DNA of 64,000 nucleotides from Candidatus Saganbacteria bacterium (GCA_026387795.1 JAPLLA010000019.1:2972-66971), one strand, 5' to 3'. Counted from the stretch's first letter, positions 8,963-48,381 are shown. The notes: a model not told the origin generated them from the letters alone. Numbers and translations are program-made.

Positions 8963-8968
8963 AGCACT

Positions 8969-9474: not shown

Positions 9475-9484
9475 GGGGGGGGGG
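9475..9484. repeat. G10 (C10 on the coding strand) homopolymer tract in the JAMM/small-protein intergenic gap
   Basis: direct read: aataGGGGGGGGGGcaagg. Confidence 0.85.
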
Positions 9485-9499
9485 CAAGGAGAAAAACCG

Positions 9500-11246: not shown

Positions 11247-13280
11247 AGAAAAGAAAGGAAGTGCGGCAATGAATCCAATGGCAGTAGCGGACGAAATAAA
11301 AAAAGAAGATTCAACGGACTTGGCTTTGTTTGTAAGAACCTCGGGAGACGATATTATTGCCTGGAACAGGCAGAAGATTGTGGAAGCCTTGATCCGGGAG
11401 ACCGGGCTGGCCAGAGAAATAGCGGACCAGATTGGATGTGAAGTGGAAGACGAAATGAAGAAGATGAACCTTAGGTTTGTTACTTCCCCGCTTATCCGCG
11501 AGCTGGTAGATGTAAAACTTTTGGAACACGGTGAAGAAGAAGCGCGGCGCAAGCATACCAGACTTGGCACCCCGCTTTATGATGTGCAGCAGCTCATTGT
11601 CAACGCCAACAAAGAAAATGCCAATGTCCCACATGGTCCCGAAGCCACCAACCTGACCCTTGCTGAAAACATTAAAAAAGAATTTGCCCTACTTTCGGTT
11701 TTTGCCCAGGATGTTGCTGATGCACACATGCGTGGCGACCTGCACCTGCATGATTTGGGTTTTATAGACCGCCCTTATTGCAGCGGACAATCCGTGGAAT
11801 ATGTAAAAAAATTCGGGCTCGACCTTCCAAACGCGCTTTCAATAGCAAAACCGGCAAAACACGCAGAAGTTTTGCTTGCACAAATGGTTAAATTCTCTGC
11901 TGCACTCCAGGGAGTGTTTGCCGGTGCAATTGGCTGGGATGCGGTAAACCTCTTTTTTGCTCCATTTTTAGAAGGGATGTCAGACGCAGAGATTAAGCAG
12001 ATTGCACAAATGATGATCTATGAATACAGCCAGCAAGCAGTGGCCAGGGGAGGGCAGGCGATTTTTTCAGACATCAACATATACTGGGAAATTCCCAAAC
12101 ACTTTGAAAATGTTCCGGCAATCGGCAAGGGGGGACAGTATACGGGCAAGGTTTACGGAGACTACTTAAAAGACGCACAGAGGTTTGCTTGGGCATTATT
12201 TGACGTATATATGGAAGGAGACGGCTCCGGTCGTCCCTTCTTTTTCCCAAAACCGCTGGTGCACATGACTGAAAAGTTTTTTAAAACCGAAGGCCACCAA
12301 GAATTCTTATTGCATATTTCCAAAGTCGCCACGGAAATGGGGAACACTTATTTTGTGTTTGACCGGGGAGAAACCGCCAAGATTTCCGAATGCTGCCGTC
12401 TCTCTTTTAAGCTGGAGCAGTCGGATCTGGATGATGCCAAAGAACCGTGGAGGATGCGCTATTCCGCTCTCCAAAACGTAACCATCAACCTCCCCAGGAC
12501 AGCATTTAAAGCAGAGGGAAGCGATGAAAAACTCTTTGTGCTGATAGGAGAAATGCTGGAACTGGCAGCTACTGCACACGTACAAAAGAAAAATTTTATT
12601 GAAGCGCTCTTGGCCAAAGGTACAAGCGGACCGCTTTCCATGCTAGCCATGAAGCGTGATGGCCAGCCGTATCTTAGGATGTTTAGAGTAAGTTATTTAA
12701 TGGGCATTTTGGGTCTCAATGAACTGGTGCAAGCACATATTGGCAAAGAGATGCATGAAAGCGACGCAGCTCTAAAACTGGGGCTCAAAGTAAATTCTTT
12801 TATGAAAATAAAATGCGACGAACTTTCCAGAAAGCACGGAATCCATTTTGTGTTGGAGCAAACCCCGGCAGAATCCACTGCCTATCGTTTTGCAAAACTT
12901 GATATTGCGCACTACCCTGAACAAGCCAAAAGAGTGGTAAAAGGGAATTTTGCTACAGGTGAAATTTATTACACTAATTCCACTTATTTCAATGAGAAAG
13001 CAAGCCGAGCCCTGCAAGCATTGCCAATTTTGTCATCAAGACCTTCCGTGAAACACAAAACACGCAAATTGCTTTTTCCCCGGAATTTACTTCCTGCAAC
13101 GACTGCGGGAAGATTGTAAGAGGACTAAAAGATCGCTGCCCTTATTGCAGTTCCGAGCAAATCGAAGGGATTACACGTATTACCGGGTATTTTTCAAAGA
13201 TTAAAGGATGGAATCGCGGTAAGACAGGGGAACTCAAGGAACGTTTCCGCGTCGGCACATTTTTTGAGGCATCATGTTAA
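11236..13280 (+). pseudogene. nrdD: anaerobic ribonucleoside-triphosphate reductase paralog (copy 1) with an internal ~95-nt out-of-frame deletion
   Basis: collinear with the intact copy at 13274-15367 up to ...YYTNSTYFN; then frame A reads a non-homologous tail ending at 13119 while frame +2 continues ESKPSPASIANFVIKTF...CNDCGKIVRGLKDRCPYC...RITGYFSKIKGWNRGK (Zn ribbon and glycyl-radical motif) to 13280; the ~32 aa VGNPMNLIDRVKQEGLFHPLIDAGALTHIWLG present in copy 2 are missing. Confidence 0.55.
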
Positions 13281-15694: not shown

Positions 15695-16576
15695 CTAATC
15701 TAAGCAGAGTTTATAACGGGTAGACTTATTTTGCCCTTCTTTTGTGACTAATTTATTTTTTATCAACGGAACAATAATCTGATTTATTCTTGAACGTGTA
15801 AGACCCATGGTTTTTTGTAATTCTTTTACTCCTATTAGGGGTCGATCTTTTAAGGTTTTTATTAGTTCTTCTTGTCTAGGAGAGAGAGTTAGCGTGCATT
15901 TGGAGGAGACCTGTAATTCTTCAATCCGTTTTTTTGTTTTTCCTAAGGTTGCAACAATTCCTTCGGCAACATATTCAACCCAATGGGTTAAATTGTTGTC
16001 CAATTCGCGGGTTTGCTGGATTTTTTCATAATAGTATTTGCGGTTAGAAGCGAAAAAATCATCTAGGCTAAGAATGTGATTTGTATCGATTCCCCATTGA
16101 TATATAATCCAGGCCCCAACCGCCCTGGCTACCCGGCCATTCCCGTCCGAAAAAGGGTGGATAGAAACAAAACGATGGTGAAAGATTGCTCCTACAATTA
16201 CACCATGCAAGATTTTTGTTTTTGAAGAGTTTAGCCATTCAAGGAGTTCGTGCATTAGTTTTGGGGTTTGCTTGGGAGTGGGAGGGGTGTAAATACGGAT
16301 TCTATTTTCATTGACCACATAGTTTTGCTTGGTTTTGTAGCTCCCAGTTTTTTGGTTTGGTAGTAATTCCTGCATAAGCATTTTGTGCAGGAGAAAAAGG
16401 GCGGATTCTGTTATTTGTGACTGGGAATGTTTTTCTATCCAGCACAAGGCTTTTAGGTAGTTGGTGATCTCTTTTTCGTAGTGCAGGGGGATTTTTAATT
16501 GTTCCCCTTGTTCCAGGGCTTTGACTTGTGCCAGGGATAAAGGGTTCCCTTCTATTGAAGTAGAAGAGTGGGCCAA
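15695..16576 (-). CDS. fic: Fic family protein (AMPylase-type fold) with C-terminal winged-helix domain
   Basis: 293 aa; canonical Fic motif HPFSDGNGRVAR; C-terminal HTH-like segment. Confidence 0.85.
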   Translation of the reverse strand: MAHSSTSIEGNPLSLAQVKALEQGEQLKIPLHYEKEITNYLKALCWIEKHSQSQITESALFLLHKMLMQELLPNQKTGSYKTKQNYVVNENRIRIYTPPTPKQTPKLMHELLEWLNSSKTKILHGVIVGAIFHHRFVSIHPFSDGNGRVARAVGAWIIYQWGIDTNHILSLDDFFASNRKYYYEKIQQTRELDNNLTHWVEYVAEGIVATLGKTKKRIEELQVSSKCTLTLSPRQEELIKTLKDRPLIGVKELQKTMGLTRSRINQIIVPLIKNKLVTKEGQNKSTRYKLCLD

Positions 16577-25593: not shown

Positions 25594-26739
25594 ATGTTTG
25601 ATCGTGTAATAGTCAGTTGTCCGGTAAAACGACTCGGTTCTCTCATGGACTTTAGCCCTGTGCTTGAGGGGATGAGCAGGTTTTTCCCTGGCAGGACGGT
25701 GCTTGTGCCTATGAGCAGACAAGCAGAACATTTGTGGCGCTATAAACTTGACGATATGAGAGAAAAAGGAGAGGCTCTGGACGTAAGAGGTAATCGGCCA
25801 AATATTATAAGGGAATTGCTGGAAAGACAAAGGGTGCTTGGGATCCCATTGACAGATGATTATGGAACAGGGGCAGAGACTCTTTCCCAAATGCTCAAGC
25901 TTACGCCTGAAGCTGCTTGTTGGGTCGGGAGCAAGGAAACAGAAGACTATTTTAGAAAATGTGCAAGGGACCTTATACCTGTTGAAGTGGCCCCTATTCT
26001 TAAGCAATACTTAAGTCACGTGGTAGATGCCACTCCCCCCACTGTTATTCACGGATCTGTAGCAGTTATCCAAAAAGCACTGGAGCTTTCGGGCCAGGAG
26101 CTTCCTGCAGATTTTAGAGCGCAGCCTCTGGTTTGGACCAGTGACAGGGAAGTCGAGACTGCAGAAGGGTTTTTTCAACGTGGCGGACTGGAAGCAGGAA
26201 GGACCATAGGAATGCATTTGGCCTCTGCCTCATATGATGTGGATAGATTCATATGGCCATGGAGAAATTTTGCGGAAGTAGCAGACCATTTTTTGGAACA
26301 AAATTTTCAAATACTTTTGGTTACAGGTAGTTTTTTTTCTGGAACCCATCCAGGGAGAGACAACTACGCCTGGCAGGATCATCGTGAATTTATGCAAGAG
26401 CTTCAGAAAAAACATCCTTCACGCAGGGAGAACGTAAAACTGTTTTACGGTGATGTTTTAGCAGAAGCAGAAGTGATCAGAAGATGCAGGACTTTTCTTT
26501 CCGCTGAGACAGGGCCTGCACACCTGGCTTCGGCAGTGGGGACGCCAAAAGTTACTATTGCTGCAAGTGAAGACCAAAAGTTTTTTTGGTTGCTCACAGG
26601 TGAACGCGACTTTGGCTTTGTATCGATGCGGGGGAAACAAAGAGGGCATAGAGATATTTTTTCCCCGGAGGTTGATACAGTGATTGAAGCAATGGAGTCC
26701 ATATTAGATGGGAGGACTAGGAGCACAGCTGCCGGATGA
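25594..26739 (+). CDS. glycosyltransferase family 9-like (heptosyltransferase-fold) protein
   Basis: 381 aa; C-terminal ...[22 protein letters not shown] resembles the GT9 signature. Confidence 0.45.
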
Positions 26740-27802
26740 TTGCATCTCCCATTTCGGATGTCCCTACAGCAGTAGGATCGTTTCTGTCCAGCTTCATGTC
26801 GTAAGTAACGTCTTTTCCTTCTCTAATTATATCTGCCACTGCTTTTTCCAGTTTTTTTGCAGCGTCAATTTCTCCCAGATATTCCAACATCAAAACGCCT
26901 GAAAGGATCATAGCAGTAGGATTAACCTTGTTTTGCCCCTTATACTTTGGCGCACTTCCGTGTACTGGTTCAAACAAAGCAATGTCTTTACCAATGTTTG
27001 CTCCTGGTGCAATCCCCAGACCCCCGATTAGCCCTGCACAAAGATCAGAGATAATATCGCCATAAAGATTTGGGAGTACTAATACATCATATAGTTCGGG
27101 TTTTTGTACTAACTGCATGCACATGTTGTCTATCAATCTCTCTTCATATTCTATTTTGCCCGCATATTCTTTTGCTACTTTTCTGGCTTCGTCAAAAAAT
27201 AAGCCGTCTGTAAACTTCATGATGTTTGCTTTGGTTACAGCAGTTACTTTTTTGCGGCCGTATTTTATTGCATAATCAAAAGCGTAGCGCACAATTCTTT
27301 GCGTACAGGCGCGGGAGATGGGCTTAATGCTTATTCCGGAGTGTTCGTTAATGTGGCGGTGGCTAAGTTTTTCAATGGTTTCAATGAGTGTTTCTGTTTC
27401 CGGCTTGTCCACTTCAAACTCGATCCCTGCATACAGATCTTCGGTATTTTCCCTGACAATTACCAAATCAATGTTTTCGTACTTTGAACGCACGCCAACA
27501 TAATATTTTGCAGGGCGCAGACAAACATAAAGGTCCAGCTCTTTTCTTAGAGCAACATTTACGCTCCTAAAACCTTTACCAATCGGAGTAGTAATGGGGC
27601 CTTTGATGGCAACTTTGTTCTTGCGAATAGACTCAATAACGTTTTGAGGGAGGGGTGTGCCTGCTTTTTCCATGATATCCACACCTGCATGCTGGATATC
27701 CCAATTAAACTTTACTCCGGTAGCTTCGAGTACTTTTCTGGTTGTTTCTGCGATTTCTGGCCCGGTCCCATCACCCGGGATAAGGGTTACGTTATAGGTC
27801 AT
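26717..27802 (-). CDS. leuB: 3-isopropylmalate dehydrogenase (isocitrate/isopropylmalate dehydrogenase family)
   Basis: 361 aa; N-terminal [10 protein letters not shown]; adjacent to leuD. Confidence 0.7.
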
Positions 27803-32730: not shown

Positions 32731-33934
32731 TTAGAGGTAATTTCGCGGGTCCGCGATCTTTCCTTCGATTACAGAGGCAGCTACAGTGGCAGGAGATGCG
32801 AGGTATATAAACGCATTCGGATTTCCCATTCTACCTTTAAAGTTGCGGTTTGCAGTAGAAATAGCATTTTCTCCGTCAGCAGGTACTCCTTGATGAGTGC
32901 CGACACATGGGCCACATCCAGGCGCAACCACTACGGCATTTGCTTCCACAAAAGTTTCGATCAAACCTTCTTTTAAAGCATCCTTAAAAATCTGCCTGGA
33001 AGCAGGAGCCACTATCAATCTGGTTTCTTTGTTTACTTTTTTACCCTTTAGAATTCCTGCAGCAATCCGTAAGTCTTCCATTCTTCCGTTAGTGCAAGTT
33101 CCAATAAATCCTTCTGCACGGCTTTGCAATTTGCGGTTCGATTTTGGAAACATCAAACTCTTTTACAGAAGCATATTTTGCGTCCGCATCAGGCGATTGA
33201 GGGCTCATTTTTTTCTTAGAATGTTTTTTAACCCAATCTAAGATTTTCTCGTCTGCTTCCATAAGCCCAACCTTTGCCCCTGCTTCTATAGCCATGTTTG
33301 AAATAGTAAAACGCGCTTCAACCGATAGATCGGAAATTACCGGTCCACCAAACTCAATAGCCTGATAAGTTGCTCCGTCTGCGGTAATTTTACCGATGGT
33401 GTATAGGATGAGGTCTTTTGAAAAGACTCCCTTGGGAAGCTTGCCTGTGTAGATAATTTTCATGGTTTCCGGTACTTTGAACCAGAGTTTTCCGGAGATA
33501 ATTCCTGCAGTAAGGTCAGTGGACCCTACGCCGGTTGAAAAAACATTGATGGCACCGTAGGTGCAAGTGTGTGAATCTGCCCCGATTACTAAATCACCGG
33601 GAACAACGTGTCCTTGTTCAGGAACTAACTGATGGCAAACCCCGCAGCCTACGTCATAGAGTACAACTCCTGTTTCTGCCACAAAACTACGGATCTTTTG
33701 GTGGATGGCAGAAACCCCGATGTTTGGGCTGGGAGCACTGTGGTCAATACAGATCGCTACCTTGGATGCATCAAAAGGTTTTTGGCCGTGCATTTTGCGA
33801 AAAGAATCAATTGCAACTCCAGAGGTCCCGTCTTGGCCCATTAAAAAATCTAGGCTGGCAATAACGATGTCCCCGGCATAAGCATCTGTGCCACTATGAT
33901 TTGATAATATTTTTTCGGAGATTGTCTTCCCCAT
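32731..33934 (-). pseudogene. leuC: 3-isopropylmalate dehydratase large subunit, disrupted (two overlapping ORFs)
   Basis: N-terminal ORF 33089-33934 ends ...[18 protein letters not shown]; the C-terminal ORF in another frame continues [11 protein letters not shown]...APGCGPCVG; ~15-20 residues expected between AKP and IGSCTNG are missing. Confidence 0.6.
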
Positions 33935-35712: not shown

Positions 35713-36982
35713 AAAAGGCCGCATTATAGATCCTTCTTCAAAACTGGACGCAGTAAAAGACCTCTTAATTGAAAACGGTAAGATCATAAAAATTGCAGAC
35801 AAAATTACCTCCTCCGGCGCAGAAACTATTGACGCTGCCAATGCTTGGGTTTTGCCCGGATTGGTTGATATGCACTGCCACTTAAGAGATCCCGGAAATC
35901 CGGAAGAAGAAACCATTGCATCCGGGACCCGCTCTGCAGCTTTGGGCGGTTACACCTCAATTGCCTGCATGGCCAACACAGAACCGCCGCTGGATAACCG
36001 GGCGCAGATTCAATATGCAATCTCAAAAGCGCAAAAAGAAGGACTCATCAACGTTTTTCCAATTGGGGCAGTGAGCAAAGGGCTTAAAGGAGAAGAATTG
36101 GCAGAGATCGGTTTTATGCTGGAAGAAGGGGCAAAAGGATTTTCGGATGACGGCAAGCCGATTATGAATGCGGAACTAATGAGAATGGCTCTCCAGTATC
36201 TGTCGCAATTTGATCTTCCGGTAATTTCCCATTGTGAAGACAGCATGCTTTCTTCCGGCGGAGAAATGAACGAAGGTGCGCTTTCTACGGAGCTGGGCTT
36301 AAAAGGGATCCCAAAACTGGCGGAAGAGATTATGGTGGAAAGGGATCTAAGACTTGCGGAAAAATTCGGCAGAGTACACATTGCACATGTTTCAACTTCC
36401 GGTTCTGTGGACCTGGTCCGTCAGGCAAAGAAAAGGGGAGTCAAAGTCACGGCAGAAACCGCGCCGCACTACTTTTCTCTTACAGAAGAAGCGGTACGCG
36501 GATACAATACCAATGCAAAAGTAAATCCTCCCTTGCGTACCGCAAAAGACGTTAAGGCAATTATCAAAGGGCTGGGAGACGGGACCATTGATGCAATTGC
36601 CACAGACCATGCGCCCCATGTCATAGAAGAAAAGAATGTAGAGTTTGGTTTGGCCTCAAATGGGATGGTTGGGTTTGAAACCGCACTTGCACTGGTGATT
36701 ACTTTTCTTGTAAACACCAAAGCGCTTACTCCTTTGCAAGCAGTCCCAAAATTAACCATTATGCCTGCGAACATCCTTAAGATAAACAAAGGGACGCTCA
36801 AGGTTGGTTCAGATGCGGATGTGACAATTGTGGATCCAAAAAAAGAGTGGACCGTAGATGCCTCGAAATTTTCCTCACGCTCCAAGAACTCTCCCTTTGA
36901 CGGAATGAAACTCCAAGGCAAAGTGATGCATACGATTGTGGGTGGACGGATAGTAGTCAAAGATTCGCAGCTGGTGAAGTGA
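35693..36982 (+). CDS. pyrC: dihydroorotase
   Basis: ~430 aa; ...GLVDMHCHLRDPG metal-binding motif; the ORF track starts two codons earlier. Confidence 0.85.
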   Translation: MTRLLVKKGRIIDPSSKLDAVKDLLIENGKIIKIADKITSSGAETIDAANAWVLPGLVDMHCHLRDPGNPEEETIASGTRSAALGGYTSIACMANTEPPLDNRAQIQYAISKAQKEGLINVFPIGAVSKGLKGEELAEIGFMLEEGAKGFSDDGKPIMNAELMRMALQYLSQFDLPVISHCEDSMLSSGGEMNEGALSTELGLKGIPKLAEEIMVERDLRLAEKFGRVHIAHVSTSGSVDLVRQAKKRGVKVTAETAPHYFSLTEEAVRGYNTNAKVNPPLRTAKDVKAIIKGLGDGTIDAIATDHAPHVIEEKNVEFGLASNGMVGFETALALVITFLVNTKALTPLQAVPKLTIMPANILKINKGTLKVGSDADVTIVDPKKEWTVDASKFSSRSKNSPFDGMKLQGKVMHTIVGGRIVVKDSQLVK

Positions 36983-37017
36983 CGCGTCTTACCTTGAAAA
37001 CCATTAAAATTTTCCTT

Positions 37018-37110
37018 AGAGCTGGAAACCTGCGACTAAACGTCGCGGTTTCCAGATATTTCAGAGGGATTTTTTTTGGAAACCGAGGCGTTCAGCCTCA
37101 GGTTTCCAAC
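37018..37110. repeat. REP-like double-hairpin element, copy A
   Basis: GGAAACCTGCGACTAAACGTCGCGGTTTCC at 37024-37053 and GGAAACCGAGGCGTTCAGCCTCAGGTTTCC at 37078-37107; the same pair recurs at 46082-46178. Confidence 0.65.
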
Positions 37111-37198
37111 TTATTTGCTGTATTTAGTTTCGTGCTTTTTGTCATTTGTTATTTGTCATTTGTCATTTCCTTGGGTGGCTGCAGCTACACAGGAGCCA

Positions 37199-37959
37199 TG
37201 ACCGAGATCCGCATTTCCCCTTTTTCCGAGACAGTAGGTGCAGGACTAACTGCACAGTTTTATGCCACAGGTTATGATTCCGGAGGACGCCCAATTACCA
37301 TTAGCCCAACTTGGAGCGTGTGGGGAGGAGTTGGGACAGTGGATGCAACCGGAAAGTTTTATGCAGGGGCATCAACAGGGATAGGATATGTTATTGCTAC
37401 TGCTTCGGGCATTTCCGGGCAAGCACAAGTTACAGTTACAGACAAAGGATCCATTTCCGGGAAAGTGCGCAATGTTTTAACGGAACTTCTAAGCGGAATT
37501 ACAGTGAGGATCGTAACCGACCATTCTAAATCCGCTCAAACAAACTCATCCGGTAGTTACATCCTTTCCGATTTGCTCCCTGCTACTTATCAAGTAGAAA
37601 CAGTAGGGACTACCCGTTATGGTTCTTCTTCCGGAGAAGCTACGGTATACACCGGTCAAGGGAGCACTTTGAATTTTACGCTAAGTGAGAGAATAGGGAT
37701 CCAAACAGATTCTATTAATAGGACCGGTACAACAATGAACATCAACGGGACAGTCAGGAATAACGGGAGCACTTCCGCTACCGGTTGTACGGTGTTTTAC
37801 TTCTTTTATAATGCGGAAGATTTTCCCATGGGGAGCGGATCTTCTTCTCTTGGCACTATTGCTGCCGGGTCTACAGAAGCGTTTATAATGGTTGTAAATT
37901 TATCGGAAGATGCAGATCCCAGCAGGACGGTGAAATATGGCATTGCCGGCGGATTCTAA
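37199..37959 (+). CDS. hypothetical protein with Big_2-like Ig domain and carboxypeptidase-regulatory-like domain; start uncertain
   Basis: ATG at 37199 (MTEIRISPF...); the ORF track extends upstream to a GTG at 36979 across the REP element; an alternative start would give a lipobox LGGC. Confidence 0.45.
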
Positions 37960-38281
37960 TCCAGAAAAAGAAGCACAAAGGATAGTGGCGGAGTACTTAT
38001 CTGGGCTAGGGTGGGCCAGGCAGTGGCAGCAAGTGATAGAAAGAGAACCGCGGTCTTTTGGAAGGGACGAAAGAGAAGACAAGCTGCGCAAAGCAGAAAA
38101 GATGATGGAAGAAACCGAAGACCGCTTTAGCCAGCATGTGGAAAAATACCTCCACGATTCTTCGCCGGAAGCCAAACAAGTGTTGGAAAACATTCTAAAA
38201 AAACTTTCGCCTCGCCGCGACTTGGGGTTTTTCTGCCAGAGGATTTTGAGCCACATTAAAAACAAGCTGGGGATTTATTAG
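37937..38281 (+). CDS. hypothetical charged small protein
   Basis: 114-aa ORF; overlaps the 3' end of the 37199 gene; no motifs. Confidence 0.3.
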   Translation: MALPADSNPEKEAQRIVAEYLSGLGWARQWQQVIEREPRSFGRDEREDKLRKAEKMMEETEDRFSQHVEKYLHDSSPEAKQVLENILKKLSPRRDLGFFCQRILSHIKNKLGIY

Positions 38282-41200
38282 GCTTGGCTTTGTACTTCCC
38301 TTTGTAATTCAGACAGATTAAACGATAAATGCGGACGCCAGATAAAATTAAATCTTTCTACTGCTACGAAATAGCTTATCTCTTTATCTCCAATCTTGCC
38401 GGTAAACCTGCGATAGGTATCGGACATAGACTTAAAATTATAGATATGGGTATTGCGGTCAAATAATTCCGGATGGTCTGCTGCAGTCCAGCCAGAAGCA
38501 ACGCTTTCTACGGCGGAGCCAAGATACCTGGCATTGGGGTTTGCATCATCGTATTGGCGATTGGGATCTGCCAGATGAGTCATTGTGCCGCTGTCAAAAG
38601 GATCAAACATTACCCATTCGTGTGCACCGGATAGCATGCCTGGAAAGTGAGCGGATTTTTCAGCAAAACCCATGTAAACAGCGCTTCTGATCCCTGCTTC
38701 CTGGTAAGCCATTTGCAGTACCGGTGAACGATGCCTGCAACATCCGCCTTTTTTCATGAAAAAAGCCTGAGTTAAAAATTGCCCAGTTTGGCCTTTTTCC
38801 CTGGATTGCTTATCTGAATATGAAATGTGGAGCTGCTCGAAAATGTTTTTGGCTAAGCCGACTACGTGGTCAGGGGCATTTAATAATCCCGCGGCAAGGC
38901 GGGAGATTGCTTCTTTTTTTGCGGCTATCACAAATTCAAAAACAACAGAAGGATCTCCTGCGCTGTCTTTTTCCCCTTTGTTTATCCCTGCAACTTCACC
39001 GTGTTCCAGGGGTTTTCCCAATTCTGCATTGAGTAGCGCAGGAGAACAGTCATGTTGGCGCAGGAATGGGTTGTCAGCCACTTCCCCATATTTGTCCGGA
39101 GTGATTTCTGCTGCAAGCGTTATTTTGTGCCCATTTGGAAACAAAGCTGCCTCGATTTTTGTTCTGGTTAACATGGTTCTGCGCACTGCCTGGTCAAATT
39201 GTTTTTCTGCTTGAGGGGTAAGCCCGCCGACTTTTGCTTTCCAACCAAGGAGTCCTCCGGTTTTAGTTTTTGGCAGAGAAGCATATAAATCAGCCAATAC
39301 CTGATTTTCCGCGCGGATGCATGCAAGCGGGTCCCTAAGGTAAAGTTCTACATAAGTGTAAAAATCACTTGCAGTGGCAACGCGCATTACTCCGCCGGAA
39401 GCTTTGGGCATGGCCAGGCCACTGACCTCATCCGGTGTAAACTTTCCAAAAAGCTCCCCCAGTAAAACTGCTTTTACACTTTTTACCGGACGGGGCGCAA
39501 GAGCTGCTGCTTGTGCAACTACTCCCAGCAGGCCGTGTAACTTGCCCAGATATTCTTTTTTGTAGTTAGCTACTCTGGCAATACCCTTCCCACTGGTTAC
39601 ATATGTTTTTATCATTTCTCTCATTTTTAGCAAGGTATCTGGTTCTTTTGTAAGCAGGCCAATGAACTCCGTAAGATTTTCTGCAGTTAAAGAGACCGCA
39701 GCCAAAGTTGGGTGAGAGAAAGAAACTTTCCCGCCGGGTCTGTTGACTTTATGCGGGAAGAGAGAGCTAAACGCAGTGTTAAATGCTTCGGGATCACTAT
39801 GCCACTGCAGGTATCCAAGAATAATCCGTCTTAAAACTTCATTTTCAGGTGTATTTAATGCTGCCACAATTTGGGTTTGGGCAGCAGCAACTTTTGCTTC
39901 TATGGCAGCCCCGATTTTGGCGATGGCTGCTGTGCGGTGTTCAATTTTTTCTCGAATTTGTGCATTTGCCGGATCTGCCTGGGCTGCTGTTTCCCAAAGT
40001 GCACAATACTGCCGTAAGGCGGATAAAGCGGTAAAAAGATTTTCCAGGGAGTGCATTCTTGCCAGTTCTGCGCCGCTGGTTGAGATTGCTATGCCTTGAT
40101 TAAAAATAGCCCTAACTACATCCTTTTTGTCTCCTTGCTGTGCTTGCAAATCCGCTTCTGCTTCTTGGGCTGTTTTAAGAGCGCTTTTTTGCGGCGGCGT
40201 AGGAGGTTCCGGGACAGAAACTCTGGTGTGTTTATAAGCAAAAACAGAGACATTGTCCCCATGTGCACCACCGTTTGCTCTCATTGTTTCTACAGAGGCC
40301 TGGTAAATGTTTGCAGCTAAGTCAACTAAAGAAGATGTGGGGTCCAGCAGCTCAACAAAAGAAGCAAACTTTTCTTCTCCGGGCTTTTTTGAGGCAGCGT
40401 TAAAAGGAAGGTTGTCCCGCGGACCGTCAGTCATTCCCAAGACAATATCCCCTTCTTCCAATTCGCAGGTAAAAACATGCGGAGTACTGTTGGTTTGGCC
40501 CAAGGCTCTCAAAATTATGTGATTATTAGGAAACCCCCTAAAAATTTCATGATATTCTCTTAGCTCTTCTCCGCCTATGGGTTGGGTAGGGTAATCTCCT
40601 TTATCCATTTTATATCCTTCAACGGCTAAGTTGTCGTCGAACGACACTTGATGCAAGGTCCCGTTTTGTTTAAGGACATAAACAGGGGCGTCACCTATGT
40701 TAACTACAGTTAAAGTATTTCCGCGGACCTCGTAAGCAGCAACAGTACTTCCCATTCCTTTTAAGGTTTGTTTTTCCGGCCTTCCGTCTAAAGCTGCAGC
40801 AGCAAGATCTTTTTCTACTTCTTCCAATATTTTTGCTTGAGCCAGTGCAATACATTCTTGCAAAGTTTTACCTTCGCCAAGAGCTTTGGAAAAAACCTCT
40901 GCTGCTATGCGGCTGGCAACTTCTCCCCCTGCGTGTCCTCCCATGCCGTCAAAACAAACAAAAACCTTCCTTTGGGCATCTTCATAATACAAAATAGCAT
41001 CTTCGTTTTTTGCCCTTGCTCCAATGCTGGTGAGGCCGTGTATGTTTTTCCCTGGGAAAGTGATGACCCCTTCTGCTCCGCCCGCGTAAAATTTTACAGT
41101 TTGTACTGGTGCTGCTTCTTTCTGTGCAATGACTCGGTCCAAGTTTTCCAGTGCTTTGGTTTTGGCGCCCGCTATGTCTACCATAGACTGTAAAAGTGCG

Positions 41201-44184
41201 GCGTCTTCCGGAGAGGTAAAAATCCGTCTTCCTTTTTCTAATGCTTTGGTCCAAATTCCAAGTTCTTTGTCAACTAGAGAGCGGGTGATCCTTAATTGGT
41301 CCAATGTTTCCTTGTTTAAAGCCTCTAAATTTCCGCTTCCAGCAGCAGCAATGCTTACAGCTGCAGCTGTATTCATCCCTACGGTTCCACCTGGTCCTGT
41401 AACCAGGTAAATGGGATCTATTTGTTCCAGAGCTTCTTTATGTAAGCGGCGGGCCAGGGCTTTTTTGGTTAGGCTTAAAGCAGTTCTGGCATGTGCTACT
41501 TCTGCTTCAAAAGGTTTTTCATGTGGGAACCTAGCATTCGCTCTTTCCCAAATAGGAACACTTCTGGCAAAACCATCCAAGACCCCTTCCAAGGCAGCCA
41601 CATCCCAGCCAGTAGCCAAAGCAGCAACCCGGTCTGTTTCCGATGCATGCTGTCTAATGATATTTCTTATATGTCCGTCAATTTGGCGATGATGGGTAGT
41701 GGACCAGGCACGTTCTTGATCTCCTTCTGCGCTTGTTCTGGCAGCGGCAACATCATCTTTTCTTAATTTAATCGCTTGATTAAGGGCCTCCAAACCTTCC
41801 CGTTTTCTTTTTGCCAGTTCCCCAAAAGGGTGGTCTGGGGAAAAAGCAGCATCCGCACCCTGCCATAGCCGCAATGCTTCTCCCATGCGATGGCTGGTTT
41901 CTTCTAGGATTGCTAAACTGGTATCATTGGTTGTTCTGGGGCCGTTTTCCATGCGGTCTCTGATCCGGGTCCAAGCAACACCTGCGTCGGTATTTGGAAA
42001 AAGATCTGCTTCGGCTTTTTCGGTTTTTCTTTTTGCATTAGCAAATACAGCTTCCTTTTCTTCTATAGCAGTCCCTAATATTATTCGAGCGGTTTTAAGG
42101 TTTTCGGTTTTTTTGGAAGCTTCACTGCTTTCCGGGAATTCACTGCTAAGCGGTTCCCAAACCACCAAGATATCCCCTAAAATTTTCTGAGTAGCCTGAA
42201 GCAGTGCTAAAGAAGTGTGGTCCAAGAATTCAGGCTGTTCCAGTGCCACTCCATAGGTGTCTTCTACTTCCTCGGGAGCATAACCAGTTGCCATTTTCAA
42301 TATATCATTTTCTGCTTTCCTGGCCAGGCTCATTTGCCTTTCCATGTGTACAACTGCAACTCGTTGTTCCAGGATCCTTAGTTCAGCCAACTGTGCGTTG
42401 ATGGGGATAGTTAAGTCCGGCTTTTCAATAGACAATCTTTCCCAAAACGCAATTCTGCTCCTTAGCCAAGAGAGGGTTTGAGCTACTGTTCTGTAACCTT
42501 GTTCTTCCTCGATCCCGGCTGCCCTAAAAGAAGGCGGGAGGGGAGCAGTATTAGCAGGATCCCTTTTCCATTCCAAATAAGTCTTTATATCTGCATGCCT
42601 GGCCAGAAATTCCGTTTCTTGTGCCTTGTGGAATGCAACCGGGTCATTGGTCCTCCCGATTTTTAAGTCAATTATTTTTTGAAGTTCTACAAGGGCCCTG
42701 GCATAACCCTCAATTTTATCTTGTGCAAAGGCTGGGTCGTTTAAACTGGTTCTGGCAGTTTCCCATGCAGCTTTTAGTGTTTGGGCTTTTTCATAAACTG
42801 CTTGGAGTTCGGGAAGAGAATAGGCTGCTAATTCATCGGGATTTTCCCTTGCGCTGGTCATTACAGTGCTAAAATGCACTGGCGGTTCTGCCCCCAATAA
42901 TTCCCCGATAGTTCTACTTTCTTCCGCTACTAATTTGGCAAAGGTCAAAACTTTTTTATCACTCTTAGCTGTTGCCAAGGCGTGTTGTAAAACAGTCATG
43001 CGAAGGGAACTTTTAGGATGATTAACTTCTGCGGCAAAGCTTTGCCAGCTTGCAATGTGCTCTCCCAGAAAAGTTAAAACTGATTCTATAGCAGCCAAGC
43101 TATCTTCGACTGCTGCCAGGTCCCTAAAACTTTCCGGTAAATCACGTGTTGCTCCGGGTTGCGTTCTTGCGGCCAAATATTCCTGGGCTTTGCCAGAAAG
43201 AGCTGCAATTACTTGGGCTTCTTCTCTAAGCTTTGCTTCATGTAAGCTTTGTTTTAGTTCCCCAATTACGCGTCCAAGGGTTTCCAAGTCCGCGGTGTAT
43301 TGAGCGTGAAGCTCTGTCCCGTCTTCCAAAAGAGGGAGTAGTTCTTCGCGGACCAATCGTTCTGCTTCAACCAAGGTTTTTAGGTCTGCCAAAGTGGTAC
43401 CTGCATACTGCCTGGAAACAACCATAATTGCAGCAGGGGAGATGCCCAGCAGGTCTTGTGTAGCAGTCCCCAAAGTTTCTCTTAAAGCATCAATCCTTGC
43501 TCCTTCTTCTTGCACTTCCCTTCCCAGACGCGCGGAAGATTCTCTTAACTGCCGTGCTTGTTCTTCTAACCCCGGAAGATTTGCTTCTCTTTCTGCTTCT
43601 ACCAGTGCTCTACGCATGTCTTCTACTGGTCCCATAAGTACAGCTTTGAAAGCTGCCAAGGAATCCCTGCATCCTTTCAAAGCAGCAGTTAGGTCTCCTG
43701 CTTGTTCTTCTCCTTCTCTTTTTGCTCCTTCTAACTCATCCTTACCTGCTTCTTCAAGACCAGGAGTTGTAAGCGCGCCTAAAACAACAGCAAGCGCATT
43801 ATTTATACCGCTTAAGGCAGCATTTAACTCAGTAATTTGAGCACTTAAATCTTTTGCTTCTGCATTGGCGTCAAATTCTTGCAATACCCCTGATTCTGCA
43901 TTGGCAATGGCGCTTCTCTGAGCTGCCAGTTCCCCGCTTTTTTCTTCTATTGTTCTTGCTGTTTCTTTCAAAGAAGCGGTGGCTTGATCTGCCAAGGGGC
44001 GTTTTTGTTCCAATGAACCTGTGAGGGTATCGATTTCTTCCCGCGCAGAGATTACCTTAAGCCAAGCAGCTTGAAAAGCAGAGACCTCTGCTGGTAATGT
44101 GGGTCTTATTGTAGGTTTTTGATGAGAACGAAACAGAACGAGATCGCCTGTTCTTATTAGTCCTCTTACACCGGGACTCTGCAT
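38278..44184 (-). CDS. giant multidomain protein (1968 aa): shared N-terminal paralog module, PP2C-type phosphatase domain, C-terminal transglutaminase-like Cys-His-Asp domain
   Basis: the first ~600 aa are collinear with the 585-aa and 723-aa neighbours; FVCFDGMGGHAGGE, NIGDAPVYV and LGMTDGPRDN are PP2C motifs (DNA ~40190-40950); C-terminal GGCCRHRS...GAHEWVMFDPFD fits a transglutaminase-like Cys/His/Asp core (DNA ~38480-38760). Confidence 0.7.
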   Translation of the reverse strand: MQSPGVRGLIRTGDLVLFRSHQKPTIRPTLPAEVSAFQAAWLKVISAREEIDTLTGSLEQKRPLADQATASLKETARTIEEKSGELAAQRSAIANAESGVLQEFDANAEAKDLSAQITELNAALSGINNALAVVLGALTTPGLEEAGKDELEGAKREGEEQAGDLTAALKGCRDSLAAFKAVLMGPVEDMRRALVEAEREANLPGLEEQARQLRESSARLGREVQEEGARIDALRETLGTATQDLLGISPAAIMVVSRQYAGTTLADLKTLVEAERLVREELLPLLEDGTELHAQYTADLETLGRVIGELKQSLHEAKLREEAQVIAALSGKAQEYLAARTQPGATRDLPESFRDLAAVEDSLAAIESVLTFLGEHIASWQSFAAEVNHPKSSLRMTVLQHALATAKSDKKVLTFAKLVAEESRTIGELLGAEPPVHFSTVMTSARENPDELAAYSLPELQAVYEKAQTLKAAWETARTSLNDPAFAQDKIEGYARALVELQKIIDLKIGRTNDPVAFHKAQETEFLARHADIKTYLEWKRDPANTAPLPPSFRAAGIEEEQGYRTVAQTLSWLRSRIAFWERLSIEKPDLTIPINAQLAELRILEQRVAVVHMERQMSLARKAENDILKMATGYAPEEVEDTYGVALEQPEFLDHTSLALLQATQKILGDILVVWEPLSSEFPESSEASKKTENLKTARIILGTAIEEKEAVFANAKRKTEKAEADLFPNTDAGVAWTRIRDRMENGPRTTNDTSLAILEETSHRMGEALRLWQGADAAFSPDHPFGELAKRKREGLEALNQAIKLRKDDVAAARTSAEGDQERAWSTTHHRQIDGHIRNIIRQHASETDRVAALATGWDVAALEGVLDGFARSVPIWERANARFPHEKPFEAEVAHARTALSLTKKALARRLHKEALEQIDPIYLVTGPGGTVGMNTAAAVSIAAAGSGNLEALNKETLDQLRITRSLVDKELGIWTKALEKGRRIFTSPEDAALLQSMVDIAGAKTKALENLDRVIAQKEAAPVQTVKFYAGGAEGVITFPGKNIHGLTSIGARAKNEDAILYYEDAQRKVFVCFDGMGGHAGGEVASRIAAEVFSKALGEGKTLQECIALAQAKILEEVEKDLAAAALDGRPEKQTLKGMGSTVAAYEVRGNTLTVVNIGDAPVYVLKQNGTLHQVSFDDNLAVEGYKMDKGDYPTQPIGGEELREYHEIFRGFPNNHIILRALGQTNSTPHVFTCELEEGDIVLGMTDGPRDNLPFNAASKKPGEEKFASFVELLDPTSSLVDLAANIYQASVETMRANGGAHGDNVSVFAYKHTRVSVPEPPTPPQKSALKTAQEAEADLQAQQGDKKDVVRAIFNQGIAISTSGAELARMHSLENLFTALSALRQYCALWETAAQADPANAQIREKIEHRTAAIAKIGAAIEAKVAAAQTQIVAALNTPENEVLRRIILGYLQWHSDPEAFNTAFSSLFPHKVNRPGGKVSFSHPTLAAVSLTAENLTEFIGLLTKEPDTLLKMREMIKTYVTSGKGIARVANYKKEYLGKLHGLLGVVAQAAALAPRPVKSVKAVLLGELFGKFTPDEVSGLAMPKASGGVMRVATASDFYTYVELYLRDPLACIRAENQVLADLYASLPKTKTGGLLGWKAKVGGLTPQAEKQFDQAVRRTMLTRTKIEAALFPNGHKITLAAEITPDKYGEVADNPFLRQHDCSPALLNAELGKPLEHGEVAGINKGEKDSAGDPSVVFEFVIAAKKEAISRLAAGLLNAPDHVVGLAKNIFEQLHISYSDKQSREKGQTGQFLTQAFFMKKGGCCRHRSPVLQMAYQEAGIRSAVYMGFAEKSAHFPGMLSGAHEWVMFDPFDSGTMTHLADPNRQYDDANPNARYLGSAVESVASGWTAADHPELFDRNTHIYNFKSMSDTYRRFTGKIGDKEISYFVAVERFNFIWRPHLSFNLSELQREVQSQA

Positions 44185-44278: not shown

Positions 44279-46036
44279 TTAAGCTTGCTGTTTCGCGGTT
44301 GTTTCCAAGGCCCTTAATTCTGTTAAATGCGAATTAATTTTATCGGCTAATCCAGGATTTTCCCAAAGCAAACCTTCCCAAAAAGCGATCCGTTCTTTTA
44401 ACCAAGGGAGCGCTTCTGCTGCTGCTTCTCTTTTTGATTGCTTAGCCACAGAATAAGCAGGGGAGGGTATATAAGAAACCCAATCTTTTGCCAAATTTAA
44501 ATAAGCTTCCATAACCGGGTGGCGGGCCAAATCTTCTGCTTCTTGTGCTTTGTGGAAAGCAACTAGGTCACCAGTTTTTCCGCTTTTTAAATCAATTGCT
44601 TTTTGGAGTTCGGAAAGCGCCTTGGTGTAGCCTTTGATTTCTTCTTTACCAAACTCTGGATCGCCAATCCTGGCTCGCATTTTTTCCCACTCGCCAAGGA
44701 AAGCTTGAACTTTTTCGCAAGCTATTTGGAGTTCAGCAAGGGGGAGCTTTACCAGCCATTCCGGGTTTTTCTTGGCAAAAAACAGAAGGTCGGATAAGCC
44801 GGTGCGAAATTCAGGACACTCAGGATTCAAAAAAGAGAGCCCCTTGCTAGCTGTACCCTCTAGGTCTTTTACTGAGAAAAAGGCGCGTCGTGTTAGATCT
44901 TCTTTTTTGCTTGCTAGCTCCTTTTTTAGACACTCTAAATGAAAGGAGCTCATATCATAGCCTGTCTCTTGGCAAAAAACCTGCCAGATTGCAATCTGCT
45001 TTCCCAAAAAAACTATCTTCTGTTCACATTCTTCCACGGGGTCGTCTATTTTAGGAAGGGCTTTTTTTGCAAGTTCTTCTTCGTCCCACCTTGCTTCATG
45101 TAGTTGCCTCTTTAGGTCTGCCAATGCTATGGCAGCCGGGTCCCTGCCATAAAACATCGATTCCGCTAAAAGAGGACCAATCTCTTCGCGCAGCAATCGG
45201 CTTGCTTCGCGCAAAGTTTTTAGGTCTTCCAAAGCACTTCCTTTATACTCTCCCAATACAACCATAGCTGCAGCAGGGGAGAAGCCTGAAACCTCTTGCA
45301 TAACCAGCGGCAACTCTTTTCTTAATACCGCAAGCCTTTCTTCTGCTTCCCGCACTTCTCTTTCAATGCGAGCATGATATTCTATTGAATCTCGTTCATG
45401 TAGCCACAATCTACGAGCAGGGGAAGTTGCGTCTGCGATTGCCAGTGCTGTGCGCATTTCTTCTACGGGTTTCATAAGTATGGCTTTGAAATTTGCTAAG
45501 GAATCCCTGCATCCTGTTAAAACAGCAGTTAGTTCTCCTGCTTGTTCTTCTCCTTCTCTTTGAACCCCTTCTAACTCATCTCTATCTTTTGCTTCAAGAC
45601 CAGGAGCTTTGAGCGCGTCTAAAACAACAGCAATTGCACCCTTTATGCCTTCTAAGACAGCATTTAAATCAGTAATTTGAGTGCTTAATTCTTGGACCTC
45701 TGGAGTTGCGTCAAATTCTTTTAACGTAGCAGCTTCTGCAAGGGCAATAGCGCTTCTTTGGGATTCAAGCGCGCGGTTGCTTTCATCTACAGCTATGGCA
45801 GTTCTGCCTATTTCCGTAGTAGGCCACCCTTCCAAGAAAGAGCGGCTATGTTCCAAGAATGCTTCCCTGTCCTTTATTTCTGTGCGTGCGGAAAGCAGTC
45901 TAAGCCAAGCAGCTTGGAAGGGGGTAACAGTTTCCGGCAAAAAAGTTTTTATAACAGCTTTTGTAATAGCAGTAGGGCGGTATATGGTAATATCGCTTAC
46001 TCTTCTCGGCCCGCTAGCCACATCTGCACACAGCAT
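44279..46036 (-). CDS. paralog (585 aa) of the N-terminal module of the giant protein
   Basis: conserved segments TPFQAAWLR, SQRSAIALAEA..KEFDATPEVQELSTQITDLNA, LEGVQREGEEQAGELTAVLTGCRDSLANFKAILMKPVEEM, DLVAFHKAQEAE, RIAFWE. Confidence 0.65.
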   Translation of the reverse strand: MLCADVASGPRRVSDITIYRPTAITKAVIKTFLPETVTPFQAAWLRLLSARTEIKDREAFLEHSRSFLEGWPTTEIGRTAIAVDESNRALESQRSAIALAEAATLKEFDATPEVQELSTQITDLNAVLEGIKGAIAVVLDALKAPGLEAKDRDELEGVQREGEEQAGELTAVLTGCRDSLANFKAILMKPVEEMRTALAIADATSPARRLWLHERDSIEYHARIEREVREAEERLAVLRKELPLVMQEVSGFSPAAAMVVLGEYKGSALEDLKTLREASRLLREEIGPLLAESMFYGRDPAAIALADLKRQLHEARWDEEELAKKALPKIDDPVEECEQKIVFLGKQIAIWQVFCQETGYDMSSFHLECLKKELASKKEDLTRRAFFSVKDLEGTASKGLSFLNPECPEFRTGLSDLLFFAKKNPEWLVKLPLAELQIACEKVQAFLGEWEKMRARIGDPEFGKEEIKGYTKALSELQKAIDLKSGKTGDLVAFHKAQEAEDLARHPVMEAYLNLAKDWVSYIPSPAYSVAKQSKREAAAEALPWLKERIAFWEGLLWENPGLADKINSHLTELRALETTAKQQA

Positions 46037-46209: not shown

Positions 46210-48381
46210 TTATGCTCTTGTTTTTGAAATTGCAGTAGTTAAATTTCTAAATGCGGCTTGTAATTGGTCAATTAAAGCATCAAAAGGCCGGTCCGGATAA
46301 CACTTTTGGTTTGCATTTGGCCAGAGGATGTTTAGGCGCGTAGAAAGAATCTCTCTGGCAAGGACCAGCATAGCTTTTTTGTATTTGCCCAGAGTTTCAG
46401 GAGAGGTTTCTGCTGCAGCGCTAATTTCCCGGAGAAGATCCTCATAATGCTGACTCTCATAAAGAACGTCTTCTTCTGACAATGCCGCATCTCTTGCTAT
46501 TTTAATGTTTTTTTCCCTTGAAGAAATAACTGCGCCAATAGTTCTCATAGCAGTTCCTCTTTTTTCAATCTTTTGGGCAATAATAGTATTTTGGGGATAT
46601 TTGAAGCGAAGGGCTAGCCATAAGCCTGTGCCAAGCTGCAGCATAGAGCGCACAGAGAGCATAGAGTGAAGCTGTGATCCCCGAAATGTTTCAGGACGGC
46701 CAGCTTGAGCCCTGTGGTACATGCCTGTGGTTTTCCCGGGGCAGAAAATGTCTTCATTTGCCTGGTCCATAATTTCTTTTTCCCTGATAATAACAGCAGC
46801 GATTTCTAGTTTTTCTTTAGCCTCTCTTAAAGCAGTTAAGCGGCTGTTGATTTTGGCAATATCTGGGTGAGAGGGATGGGCTGCTACTACTCTTTCGTAT
46901 TCCGGAATACAGGATTCTGTAACTTGCAATCCGCTGTTTATCAGGGTTACCCATGGATCCTGGTATAAATAACTATAATTGCGAGGCAAAGGGCCCTCTG
47001 ACGAGTGATAAGGGGCATCCGAATCTTCTAAATATGCATTATATCCCTGTCCCTGGTTTTGCATAACAGTTTCCAAGTGAGGGACTGCTTCCAGCAGTTC
47101 TTCTTCTGCACAGAGCGCAAATGCTACGGGGTCATCCACTGCTTTGCTTTTTATTGCTATCATCATGTCTAACTTCTCCAAAACAATTTTATAAGTACTG
47201 GTCTTGATCCCTGCAAGGCAAGGAGAATCGATGGCTTTCTCAAAAGCTTTCCATTTATGGAGTAGAGCAGTGATTGTTTCATGGGCGGAATGGAGAAATG
47301 GGAGGGAAAATCTTCCAAACCCGGGATGTTCCGGGTAATGTTCAATACTGCACAAAAACCCAAAATCTTCTTTAACTTTTGGCAGTGCAGCATTTAAAAT
47401 GCCTTCTTCTTCTCTCAATTTTTGGTCGATAAGGGATTGGAATAAATCACGGATTTTACCGCGCAATAAACTTAGGTCCTCACCGTATTGGGTAGAAAGA
47501 ACTGTTCCCAACACTAAAAGAGGGAGAAGCTTGTTCTCAATCAATAGCACTGTTTCTCTTAAGGTTGTAAGGTCCTCGATGGTTTCTGCTGGGTATGTCC
47601 TGTTTAATATCGCAGCAGAAGCAGGGGAGAGAGCAGTTAGATCTCTATTTACTGCAGCTTCTTCTTCTCTTAGCTCTGCCAGCGTTGCCTCATCTGCCCG
47701 GATTTCTGTTGTTCGGTCAGCTTGTTGTCTCTCAATGGTAGCCTTGGTTTCTCTAAGACCGCGTTCCCTTTCTACTAAAGCCGGCTTTTCTGCTTCAATA
47801 GTCTGGCGCAATGTTTCTACCGGTCTCATTAGTACGGTTTTGAAAGCTGCCAAGGTATCCCTGCAGCCTGTCAAAGCAGCGCTTAGCTCTCCTGCTTGTT
47901 CTTCCCCTTCTATTTTTGCCGCTTCTAGCTCGTTTCTATCTGCTGCTTCAAGACCAGGAGTTGTAAGCGCGCCTAAAACAACTGCAGCTGCATCGCGGAT
48001 ACCGTCTAAGGCAGCAGTTAATTCAGCGATTTGAGAGCTTAACTCTTTTACTTCGGAAGTAGCACTAAATTCCTGCGAAGCAGCAGCTTCTGCTTGTGCA
48101 AGATCTTTGGTTTGTTTTTCCAATGCTGCGGTTGTTTCCGTAATTGCGGTTTCGATTTTGGGGAGCAGGACTGCAGCATGCTTGGAAAGGCCAGTTTTTA
48201 CTACTAACATCTTTTCCCGTGCAGAGATTTCTTCTCTTATAAATATTTTCCTGAGCCAGAGGGTCTGGAAAGGGGTTTGGGTTTGGGGCAGGGGAGTGCG
48301 GACCCTTGCTGCTCCCGGAAGCACAAAAGTTCTTATGCTTACTCTTCTTGCAGTTGCTCCATCTACACTGGGTCCGGACAT
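46210..48381 (-). CDS. paralog (723 aa) of the N-terminal module of the giant protein
   Basis: TPFQTLWLR, ...ELSSQIAELTAALDGIRDAAAVVLGALTTPGLEAADRNELEAAKIEGEEQAGELSAALTGCRDTLAAFKTVLMRPVE..., DDPVAFALCAEEE. Confidence 0.65.
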   Translation of the reverse strand: MSGPSVDGATARRVSIRTFVLPGAARVRTPLPQTQTPFQTLWLRKIFIREEISAREKMLVVKTGLSKHAAVLLPKIETAITETTAALEKQTKDLAQAEAAASQEFSATSEVKELSSQIAELTAALDGIRDAAAVVLGALTTPGLEAADRNELEAAKIEGEEQAGELSAALTGCRDTLAAFKTVLMRPVETLRQTIEAEKPALVERERGLRETKATIERQQADRTTEIRADEATLAELREEEAAVNRDLTALSPASAAILNRTYPAETIEDLTTLRETVLLIENKLLPLLVLGTVLSTQYGEDLSLLRGKIRDLFQSLIDQKLREEEGILNAALPKVKEDFGFLCSIEHYPEHPGFGRFSLPFLHSAHETITALLHKWKAFEKAIDSPCLAGIKTSTYKIVLEKLDMMIAIKSKAVDDPVAFALCAEEELLEAVPHLETVMQNQGQGYNAYLEDSDAPYHSSEGPLPRNYSYLYQDPWVTLINSGLQVTESCIPEYERVVAAHPSHPDIAKINSRLTALREAKEKLEIAAVIIREKEIMDQANEDIFCPGKTTGMYHRAQAGRPETFRGSQLHSMLSVRSMLQLGTGLWLALRFKYPQNTIIAQKIEKRGTAMRTIGAVISSREKNIKIARDAALSEEDVLYESQHYEDLLREISAAAETSPETLGKYKKAMLVLAREILSTRLNILWPNANQKCYPDRPFDALIDQLQAAFRNLTTAISKTRA

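Follow-up and report, generated by a model that had tools for sequence, protein, structure and literature searches.

A protein of Candidatus Saganbacteria combining a PP2C phosphatase domain and a divergent transglutaminase-like domain on a helical-repeat scaffold

Two catalytic domains in one polypeptide

The present analysis concerns one gene of a 64,000-nucleotide stretch of DNA from Candidatus Saganbacteria bacterium (GCA_026387795.1, JAPLLA010000019.1:2972-66971), hereafter called the window, whose positions are counted from its first nucleotide. This gene encodes a protein of 1968 amino acids (aa), for which an earlier note had proposed a PPM/PP2C phosphatase domain fused with a C-terminal transglutaminase-like domain and with a module shared by paralogs, as well as a role of effector manipulating host signalling. 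Open reading frame (ORF) calling revealed a frame of 1968 codons, from ATG to stop on the minus strand, exactly where it had been placed (Table 1). The NCBI entry with an identical sequence, derived from a metagenome-assembled genome (MAG), is annotated as 'protein phosphatase 2C domain-containing protein [Candidatus Saganbacteria bacterium]'. All the motifs quoted in the note were found, i.e., FDGMGGH (residues 1078-1084), NIGDAP (1162-1167) and MTDGPRD (1251-1257) in the phosphatase region, and GGCCRHR (1813-1819) and GAHEWVMFDPFD (1853-1864) in the C-terminal region. A word-indexed search with the whole protein retrieved only the protein itself, the list of candidates being swamped by its coiled-coil content, and scans for promoters and terminators remained at chance level.

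The presence of a PP2C domain was confirmed at the curated threshold of Pfam: PP2C_2 (PF13672) matches residues 1054-1281 with 53.6 bits for a gathering score of 24. SpoIIE (PF07228) matches residues 1233-1318 with 25.0 bits for a cutoff of 25, and the protein stays below the cutoff of PF00481 (18.4 vs 20.3 bits). The NCBIfam model of Stp1/IreP (NF033484) gives a partial match (profile positions 5-187 out of 232) of 97.1 bits, far under its equivalog cutoff of 230 bits; therefore, the domain is a PP2C but the protein is no Stp1 ortholog. This region aligns with the solved structures of PstP (1txo, 2cm1), Stp1 (2pk0) and tPphA (2j82), with E values of about 1e-10 to 1e-11. In these alignments, (i) R1057 (the phosphate-binding Arg position) and D1062 fall on 'R-x-x-N-x-D', (ii) D1079 and G1080 on 'DGMGGH', (iii) D1165 on 'GDSR', which is 'GDAP' here, and (iv) D1253 on '(S/C)SDG'. 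The metal ligands of the binuclear center and the third-metal Asp of GDS (D1062, D1079/G1080, D1165 and D1253) thus match those of tPphA, Stp1 and PstP at the four alignable positions. Judging from the SpoIIE envelope, which extends to residue 1318, and from the motif 'GDNVSV', D1310 is the most probable candidate for the final ligand; aligning residues 1209-1330 alone to the PDB in search of this terminal DN ligand gave only spurious matches. In the PPM family, the residue set found here is what an active enzyme needs. The domain is predicted to carry out a Mn2+/Mg2+-dependent hydrolysis of phosphoserine and phosphothreonine.

The transglutaminase-like domain stands as regards fold and family, but not as regards the Pfam threshold: Transglut_core (PF01841) requires 23 bits, and the scores reached were 18.7 bits with the whole protein and 22.9 bits with its last 220 aa. 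A single-sequence search of the PDB with the C-terminal 280 aa gave no match. An exhaustive phmmer search of 1.84 billion cluster representatives with residues 1700-1968 (E <= 0.001) retrieved 27 proteins, namely the query, 25 true relatives and a spurious repeat protein (P0019), which was rejected. Two of the 25 relatives are close (P0002, 73% identity; P0003, 50%), and 23 are distant, most of which pass Transglut_core on their own (23.4-44.8 bits). An alignment of 26 sequences of the subfamily (A1) contains only seven invariant columns, including those of C1816, H1855, W1857 and D1873. Its profile matches TgpA (6g49, a protein-glutamine gamma-glutamyltransferase; E = 1.2e-5) and Streptococcus pyogenes TglA (9crn; E = 0.0016), and its Cys, His and Asp columns superpose on the triad of 6g49. 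Therefore, the C-terminal domain is a true but divergent member of the transglutaminase-like superfamily, with a Cys-His-Asp fold. The predicted model also displays the triad layout of the transglutaminase/papain-like fold: helix 63-76 begins at the Cys, which thus lies at a helix N-terminus, and the consecutive strands 101-108 and 117-124 bear the His and the Asp.

The arrangement Cys...His-x-W...Asp proposed in the earlier note was retained for the Cys and the His, but its Asp, read in 'FDPFD' (D1861/D1864), has to be reassigned: D1861 is conserved among the closer relatives only, and the invariant Asp is D1873 in 'LADPN'. Since the first Cys of the CC pair varies among relatives (C, S, V or N) and C1816 is invariant, the conserved nucleophile is the second Cys. 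The subfamily has a signature of its own, GG-x-C-R-H-R...LQEAG...H-x-W-V...D-P-N, and its homologous module exceeds the Pfam core, extending from about residue 1666 to the C-terminus, where the motif 'ERFNFIWRP' recurs in four relatives (P0004, P0007, P0014 and P0015). A thiol-dependent acyl transfer or hydrolysis by C1816-H1855-D1873 is predicted from these residues.

Table 1. Coordinates of the 1968-aa gene, of its domains and of associated genes (window positions, unless a locus is named).
Feature	Position	Strand	Basis or remark
Whole ORF, 1968 aa and stop codon	38278..44184	-	ORF calling; identical NCBI MAG protein
N-terminal paralog module, residues 1-606, helical/coiled-coil	42367..44184	-	BLASTP; alignment A2
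Seven helical-hairpin repeats of ~100 aa (W380, W474, W581, W676, W774, W879, W978)	41095..43182	-	Leave-one-out hidden Markov model (HMM); alignment A6; AF2
PPM/PP2C Ser/Thr phosphatase domain, residues 1054-1320	40225..41025	-	Pfam, NCBIfam, alignments to PstP, Stp1, tPphA
Helical linker, residues 1329-1665, with eighth repeat unit (W1397)	39190..40200	-	Conserved with P0003
Transglutaminase-like module, residues 1666-1968 (pre-core, catalytic core, C-terminal extension ending 'ERFNFIWRP')	38281..39189	-	
Catalytic core, residues 1772-1875	38560..38871	-	Invariant columns in A1; 6g49 alignment; model
Codon of C1816	38737-38739	-	Coordinates checked
Codon of H1855	38620-38622	-	Coordinates checked
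Codon of W1857	38614-38616	-	Coordinates checked
Codon of D1873	38566-38568	-	Coordinates checked
Paralog B, 585 aa: N-terminal module and three repeat units, without enzymatic domain	44279..46036	-	
Paralog C, 723 aa: N-terminal module and different helical C-terminal part, no Pfam domain	46210..48381	-	
1853-aa gene at the head of the co-directional array: Gly-rich N-terminus, long coiled coil, possible membrane anchor	48466..54027	-	
Y1 (IS200-like) transposase ORF, between the four-gene array and the secretin gene	55281..55925	+	
Convergent neighbor, CarboxypepD_reg protein	36979..37959	+	65% identical copy in L001; conserved in L026
Convergent neighbor, 114-aa protein	37937..38281	+	50% identical copy in L001; conserved in L026
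Co-directional array: Cys-rich 463-aa protein (lipoprotein-like N-terminus), 230-aa PP2C, 711-aa P0007	L015 6493..10837; L016 7792..12136		

A helical scaffold shared with tandem paralogs

Outside its two catalytic domains, the protein is a scaffold: helical repeats or coiled coil account for about 1,450 of its 1,968 residues. Its N-terminal module, which carries the conserved motif 'TPFQAAWL' near its N-terminus, deserves the name of paralog module given by the earlier note, BLASTP revealing 42% identity between residues 11-606 and the product of the adjacent 585-aa gene and 40% identity between residues 1-442 and that of the 723-aa gene. The repeats are anchored by a Trp within 'L..W[EQ]......P'. 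This Trp is invariant in the stacked alignment of single units (A6), and the AF2 model of one unit is all helical, with a predicted local distance difference test score (pLDDT) of 82.4. In a leave-one-out HMM test of the eight units, six of them, including W1397 (17 bits), scored above each of 500 shuffles, unlike W474 and W978. Since units W978 and W1397 flank the PP2C domain, the latter is lodged between two repeats of the scaffold. Downstream of this domain, the sequence runs straight into the part conserved with the close relative P0003, as residues 1329-1965 match residues 692-1329 of P0003 with 39% identity. P0003 (1331 aa) also shares the N-terminal module, although weakly, and no PP2C domain was found in it.

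The latter fact, together with the knowledge of the 1968-aa protein from one sequence on one 67.7-kb contig, would fit an artefact of assembly or gene calling, by which a separate PP2C gene would have been joined to the scaffold gene in the MAG. However, the frame is unbroken for 5.9 kb, the guanine-cytosine content is even across the gene (0.456-0.465), the same repeat family is found on both sides of the PP2C domain, and the sequence conserved with P0003 takes over directly after this domain; we therefore consider such an artefact very improbable. Another explanation is that the protein is mainly structural, a cytoskeleton-like coiled-coil protein in which one or both enzyme-like domains would be vestigial or would serve as binding modules, their fusion being an accident of a single lineage. 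The predominance of helical repeats and coiled coil would agree with it, as would the lack of any enzyme domain in paralogs B and C, the lack of PP2C in P0003 and the fact that the fusion is known only once. However, the four alignable metal-ligand positions and the Arg position of the PP2C domain are intact and the triad is invariant across the subfamily, a pattern that is not expected of decayed domains, and the C-terminal module of 640 aa is 39% identical between orthologs. Overall, intact catalytic residues and continuous frame and repeats disfavor both the vestigial and the artefact readings, and a purely structural role appears unlikely.

The 1968-aa gene is the last of four co-directional genes separated by gaps of 84-173 bp. 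The product of the first one (1853 aa) has no BLAST similarity with the paralogs. It has a pair of adjacent hydrophobic helices (residues 156-215), and a 72-aa unit, 'DQEVVDRIAxIDRxLDPTNPFDL...', encoded by a 216-bp repeat (DNA array 51456..52293), is present in it as 3.9 tandem copies. These 72-aa repeats match the Pfam family IncD, a family of chlamydial inclusion membrane proteins (33.9 bits); this match and the bilobed hydrophobic hairpin of the same protein are curious for a Saganbacteria genome. A chlamydial origin of the DNA, to which the IncD match could point, was discarded in view of the Saganbacteria annotation of the source and of the syntenic relatives. No relatives of the giant Trp-anchored scaffold common to the three tandem paralogs were detected beyond a few Saganbacteria-like contigs.

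On the other side, the gene overlaps by 4 bp at its 3′ end (38278..38281) with the convergent gene encoding a 114-aa protein. This gene order is kept at the loci of both close relatives, L001 (encoding P0003) and L026 (encoding a truncated P0002), the corresponding gene pair overlapping by 26 bp in L026 and lying 380 bp apart in L001. The contig end (L026 1..84) truncates the P0002 gene within a stretch of 16 consecutive Pro codons, the probable cause of the break in the assembly. P0002 is also devoid of about 30 residues just before 'CCRH', and the same stretch has a low confidence in the model of the domain (domain residues 37-58).

Links with Ser/Thr phosphorylation and genomic context

The subfamily is rare in reference genomes, where only five loci were found (two in Woesearchaeota, one in Nanoarchaeota, one in a Pseudomonadota MAG and one in another Saganbacteria); one more relative belongs to a Margulisiibacteriota MAG. 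It occurs mainly in uncultured lineages, i.e., Saganbacteria, Margulisiibacteriota, Woesearchaeota, Nanoarchaeota and a few others. A metagenome scan with the alignment of close relatives (A4) gave no confirmed locus.

Several members of the subfamily, belonging to separate branches, are associated with proteins or domains involved in Ser/Thr phosphorylation. Six cluster representatives (P0011, P0016, P0017, P0018, P0020 and P0026) carry an N-terminal FHA domain. In two samples, a standalone PP2C gene encoding 230 aa lies directly upstream of the gene of P0007, a 711-aa transglutaminase-like protein with a hydrophobic central region; it is on the same strand and overlaps the end of the preceding gene. 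A histone-fold gene gives the contig of P0007 an archaeal appearance. The 463-aa gene located upstream of this PP2C gene was considered as a possible relative of the 1968-aa protein and rejected, as they share no similarity. Finally, a Pkinase gene divergently adjoins the genes of two giant relatives, P0035 and P0006. At these two loci (L021 and L022; genes at about 350-5620 and 8270-9800), a PilM/PilO/secretin cluster is located a few kb away from the gene of the relative. With the PP2C domain fused in the 1968-aa protein, there are thus four kinds of link (FHA, adjacent PP2C, kinase and fused PP2C) tying the thiol-enzyme clade to Ser/Thr phosphorylation. Because each kind probably reflects a single evolutionary event, we consider this tie as suggestive.

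The gene of P0004 (L023) is located downstream of a 242-aa gene and of a gene encoding a very basic protein of 2010 aa (L023 1144..7176). The 2010-aa protein contains repeats rich in Arg and Lys, is hydrophobic in its central region and matches GGDEF faintly. It was examined as a possible 'split' scaffold and rejected, having no similarity with the Saganbacteria scaffold, to which the 242-aa gene is likewise unrelated.

The window itself is ordinary chromosome, with genes encoding a sugar-binding protein, GlmS, GH42 and GH94 enzymes, two NrdD proteins, MiaA, isopropylmalate dehydrogenase, an Omp85 protein, RNase III, dihydroorotase, RuvB and a SLT transglycosylase. Candidatus Saganbacteria is a lineage described from groundwater and sediment, for which no host association was reported (PMC6349859), and the source organism looks like a free-living anaerobe. 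The two NrdD-family (anaerobic ribonucleotide reductase) genes are in tandem (11236..13119 and 13274..15367, plus strand, 627 and 697 aa). Other genes of the window include (i) a gene adjoining that of a PHP-domain protein and encoding a Fic/DOC-family protein of 293 aa, a possible AMPylase or toxin (15695..16576, minus strand; Pfam Fic, 71.9 bits), and (ii) a 281-aa ORF (33089..33934, minus strand) that matches only the first ~295 of the 463 positions of the Aconitase model and could represent a LeuC-type large subunit that is split or truncated; the isopropylmalate/isocitrate dehydrogenase gene (26717..27802) is located in the same region.

These data bear on the idea that the protein is an effector or toxin, secreted or injected, whose N-terminal module would be a trafficking or secretion domain borne by three paralogs with differing payloads, and whose PP2C and thiol enzyme would target proteins of another cell, eukaryotic or prokaryotic. 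The sharing of this module by proteins with different C-terminal parts is what such an effector family would display. However, neither a signal peptide nor a hydrophobic segment fit for a membrane helix was found over the whole 1968-aa sequence; Pfam and NCBIfam scans detected no trafficking or secretion domain in it, and the alignment of the N-terminal module, searched in the word-indexed database, gave no match at E <= 0.001. The gene has no dedicated effector-secretion genes next to it. The sole secretion-related gene of the window encodes a secretin that looks like a type II secretion or type IV pilus component (56349..57524); it lies about 12 kb from the 1968-aa gene and 2.3 kb beyond the 1853-aa gene, from which it is parted by a Na/Ca exchanger gene and the IS200-like transposase gene. 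The nearness of a secretin here and at L021 and L022 may be a coincidence. Furthermore, the gene is not followed by any immunity-like gene on its strand: what lies downstream is convergent and belongs to a housekeeping-like operon. The structural matches of effector type rank below those with generic transglutaminases and arylamine N-acetyltransferases, and the FHA fusions and the kinase and PP2C neighbors of the relatives fit cytoplasmic signalling better. The source lineage is, moreover, described as free-living. The PADLOC models of anti-phage defence gave no match, only a weak coiled-coil similarity with LmuB being found. The effector manipulating host signalling put forward in the earlier note was thus not borne out, and we regard a secreted or injected effector as a doubtful explanation.

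Proposed function and relation to known systems

What was observed here is the identity of the domains, the integrity of their catalytic residues, the architecture of the repeats, the paralogy, the synteny and the associations in relatives. The best explanation, to which we give an even chance of being correct, is that the 1968-aa protein is a non-secreted bifunctional enzyme built on a helical scaffold, in which a PP2C eraser is accompanied by a transglutaminase-fold thiol enzyme whose action is coupled to Ser/Thr phosphorylation. The large helical-repeat scaffold, probably cytoplasmic or membrane-peripheral, would bear two catalytic modules: (i) a Ser/Thr phosphatase of the metal-dependent PPM/PP2C family, lodged between two repeats, and (ii) a C-terminal thiol enzyme with the triad C1816-H1855-D1873, which would cleave, transamidate or deamidate a protein target. 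The recruitment or the activity of the thiol enzyme would be coupled to Ser/Thr phosphorylation. Other lineages would ensure this coupling through a reader of phospho-Thr (an N-terminal FHA domain) or through a neighboring gene, for PP2C or for a Hanks kinase, whereas in the 1968-aa protein the phospho-eraser would be built into the same polypeptide. The shared N-terminal module would bring the three paralogs to a common partner or assembly; this partner may be the 1853-aa protein encoded at the head of the array, a candidate membrane anchor.

Several observations weigh against this bifunctional enzyme. The fusion of PP2C and transglutaminase-like domains is seen in a single MAG protein, and therefore may be recent and functionally loose. 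The links with phospho-signalling are guilt by association; no FHA, PP2C or kinase neighbor was found at L001, L002, L009, L023 and L025, and there is no kinase or FHA gene among the window ORFs of at least 200 aa. As regards the domains, the confidence of the thiol-domain model is only moderate (pLDDT 67.8), this model gave no Foldseek match at E <= 0.001, the analyses used do not separate protease, transglutaminase and deamidase chemistries, and the last PP2C ligand (D1310) was not confirmed by alignment.

On a broader scale, we tentatively propose that the GG-C-C-R-H-R clade is an unrecognized output module of Hanks-type signalling. It would consist of a thiol protease, cross-linker or deamidase gated by, or directed to, phospho-Thr, which would be read by FHA in certain lineages and erased by a PP2C, fused or adjacent, in others, and would be carried in Saganbacteria by giant Trp-anchored scaffolds assembling with their paralogs. 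To our knowledge, no threonine-phosphorylation module with a transglutaminase-like output domain has been described. A full-text search combining transglutaminase-like, FHA domain and PP2C found only co-mentions in unrelated contexts, and a literature search on TglA found nothing. Since both catalytic domains belong to known superfamilies, nothing is categorically new here; the divergent subfamily, the phospho-signalling partners found recurrently with it and the architecture of the 1968-aa protein appear to be undescribed so far. This work thus defines a small divergent subfamily of the transglutaminase fold, whose members are repeatedly joined to FHA readers, PP2C erasers and Hanks kinase writers, and corrects the tempting label of 'host-manipulating effector' for a protein of a free-living organism. 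Provided that the link with Ser/Thr phosphorylation is functional, phospho-signalling in bacteria and archaea would thereby gain an output that is covalent or proteolytic.

Compared with the bacterial PPM/PP2C phosphatases (Stp1/IreP, PstP and tPphA), the phosphatase domain belongs to the same fold family according to HMM, and the motifs R-x4-D, DGMGGH, GD-x-x and (S/T)DG align. However, it lies in the middle of a 1968-aa scaffold, whereas these enzymes are stand-alone proteins of about 240 aa or membrane-anchored proteins, and it has 'GDAP' instead of the usual 'GDSR' and about 19 extra residues between TDG and GDN. The thiol domain differs from the Transglut_core members TgpA (6g49) and TglA (9crn) by its own signature, i.e., GG-C-C-R-H-R, LQEAG and a C-terminal 'FN-x-x-W-R'. 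Its kinship with arylamine N-acetyltransferases, with LapG-type BTLCP proteases and with Ceg10, SpvD and SseI is at the level of the fold only (identities of 9-15%), the Pfam and PDB searches having given no sequence-level match of the domain with arylamine N-acetyltransferase, LapG or effector thiol enzymes. Lastly, although the Saganbacteria window differs from the known modules of FHA, Hanks kinase and PP2C in that no kinase or FHA partner was found among its ORFs of at least 200 aa, the same three components recur around the thiol-enzyme subfamily.

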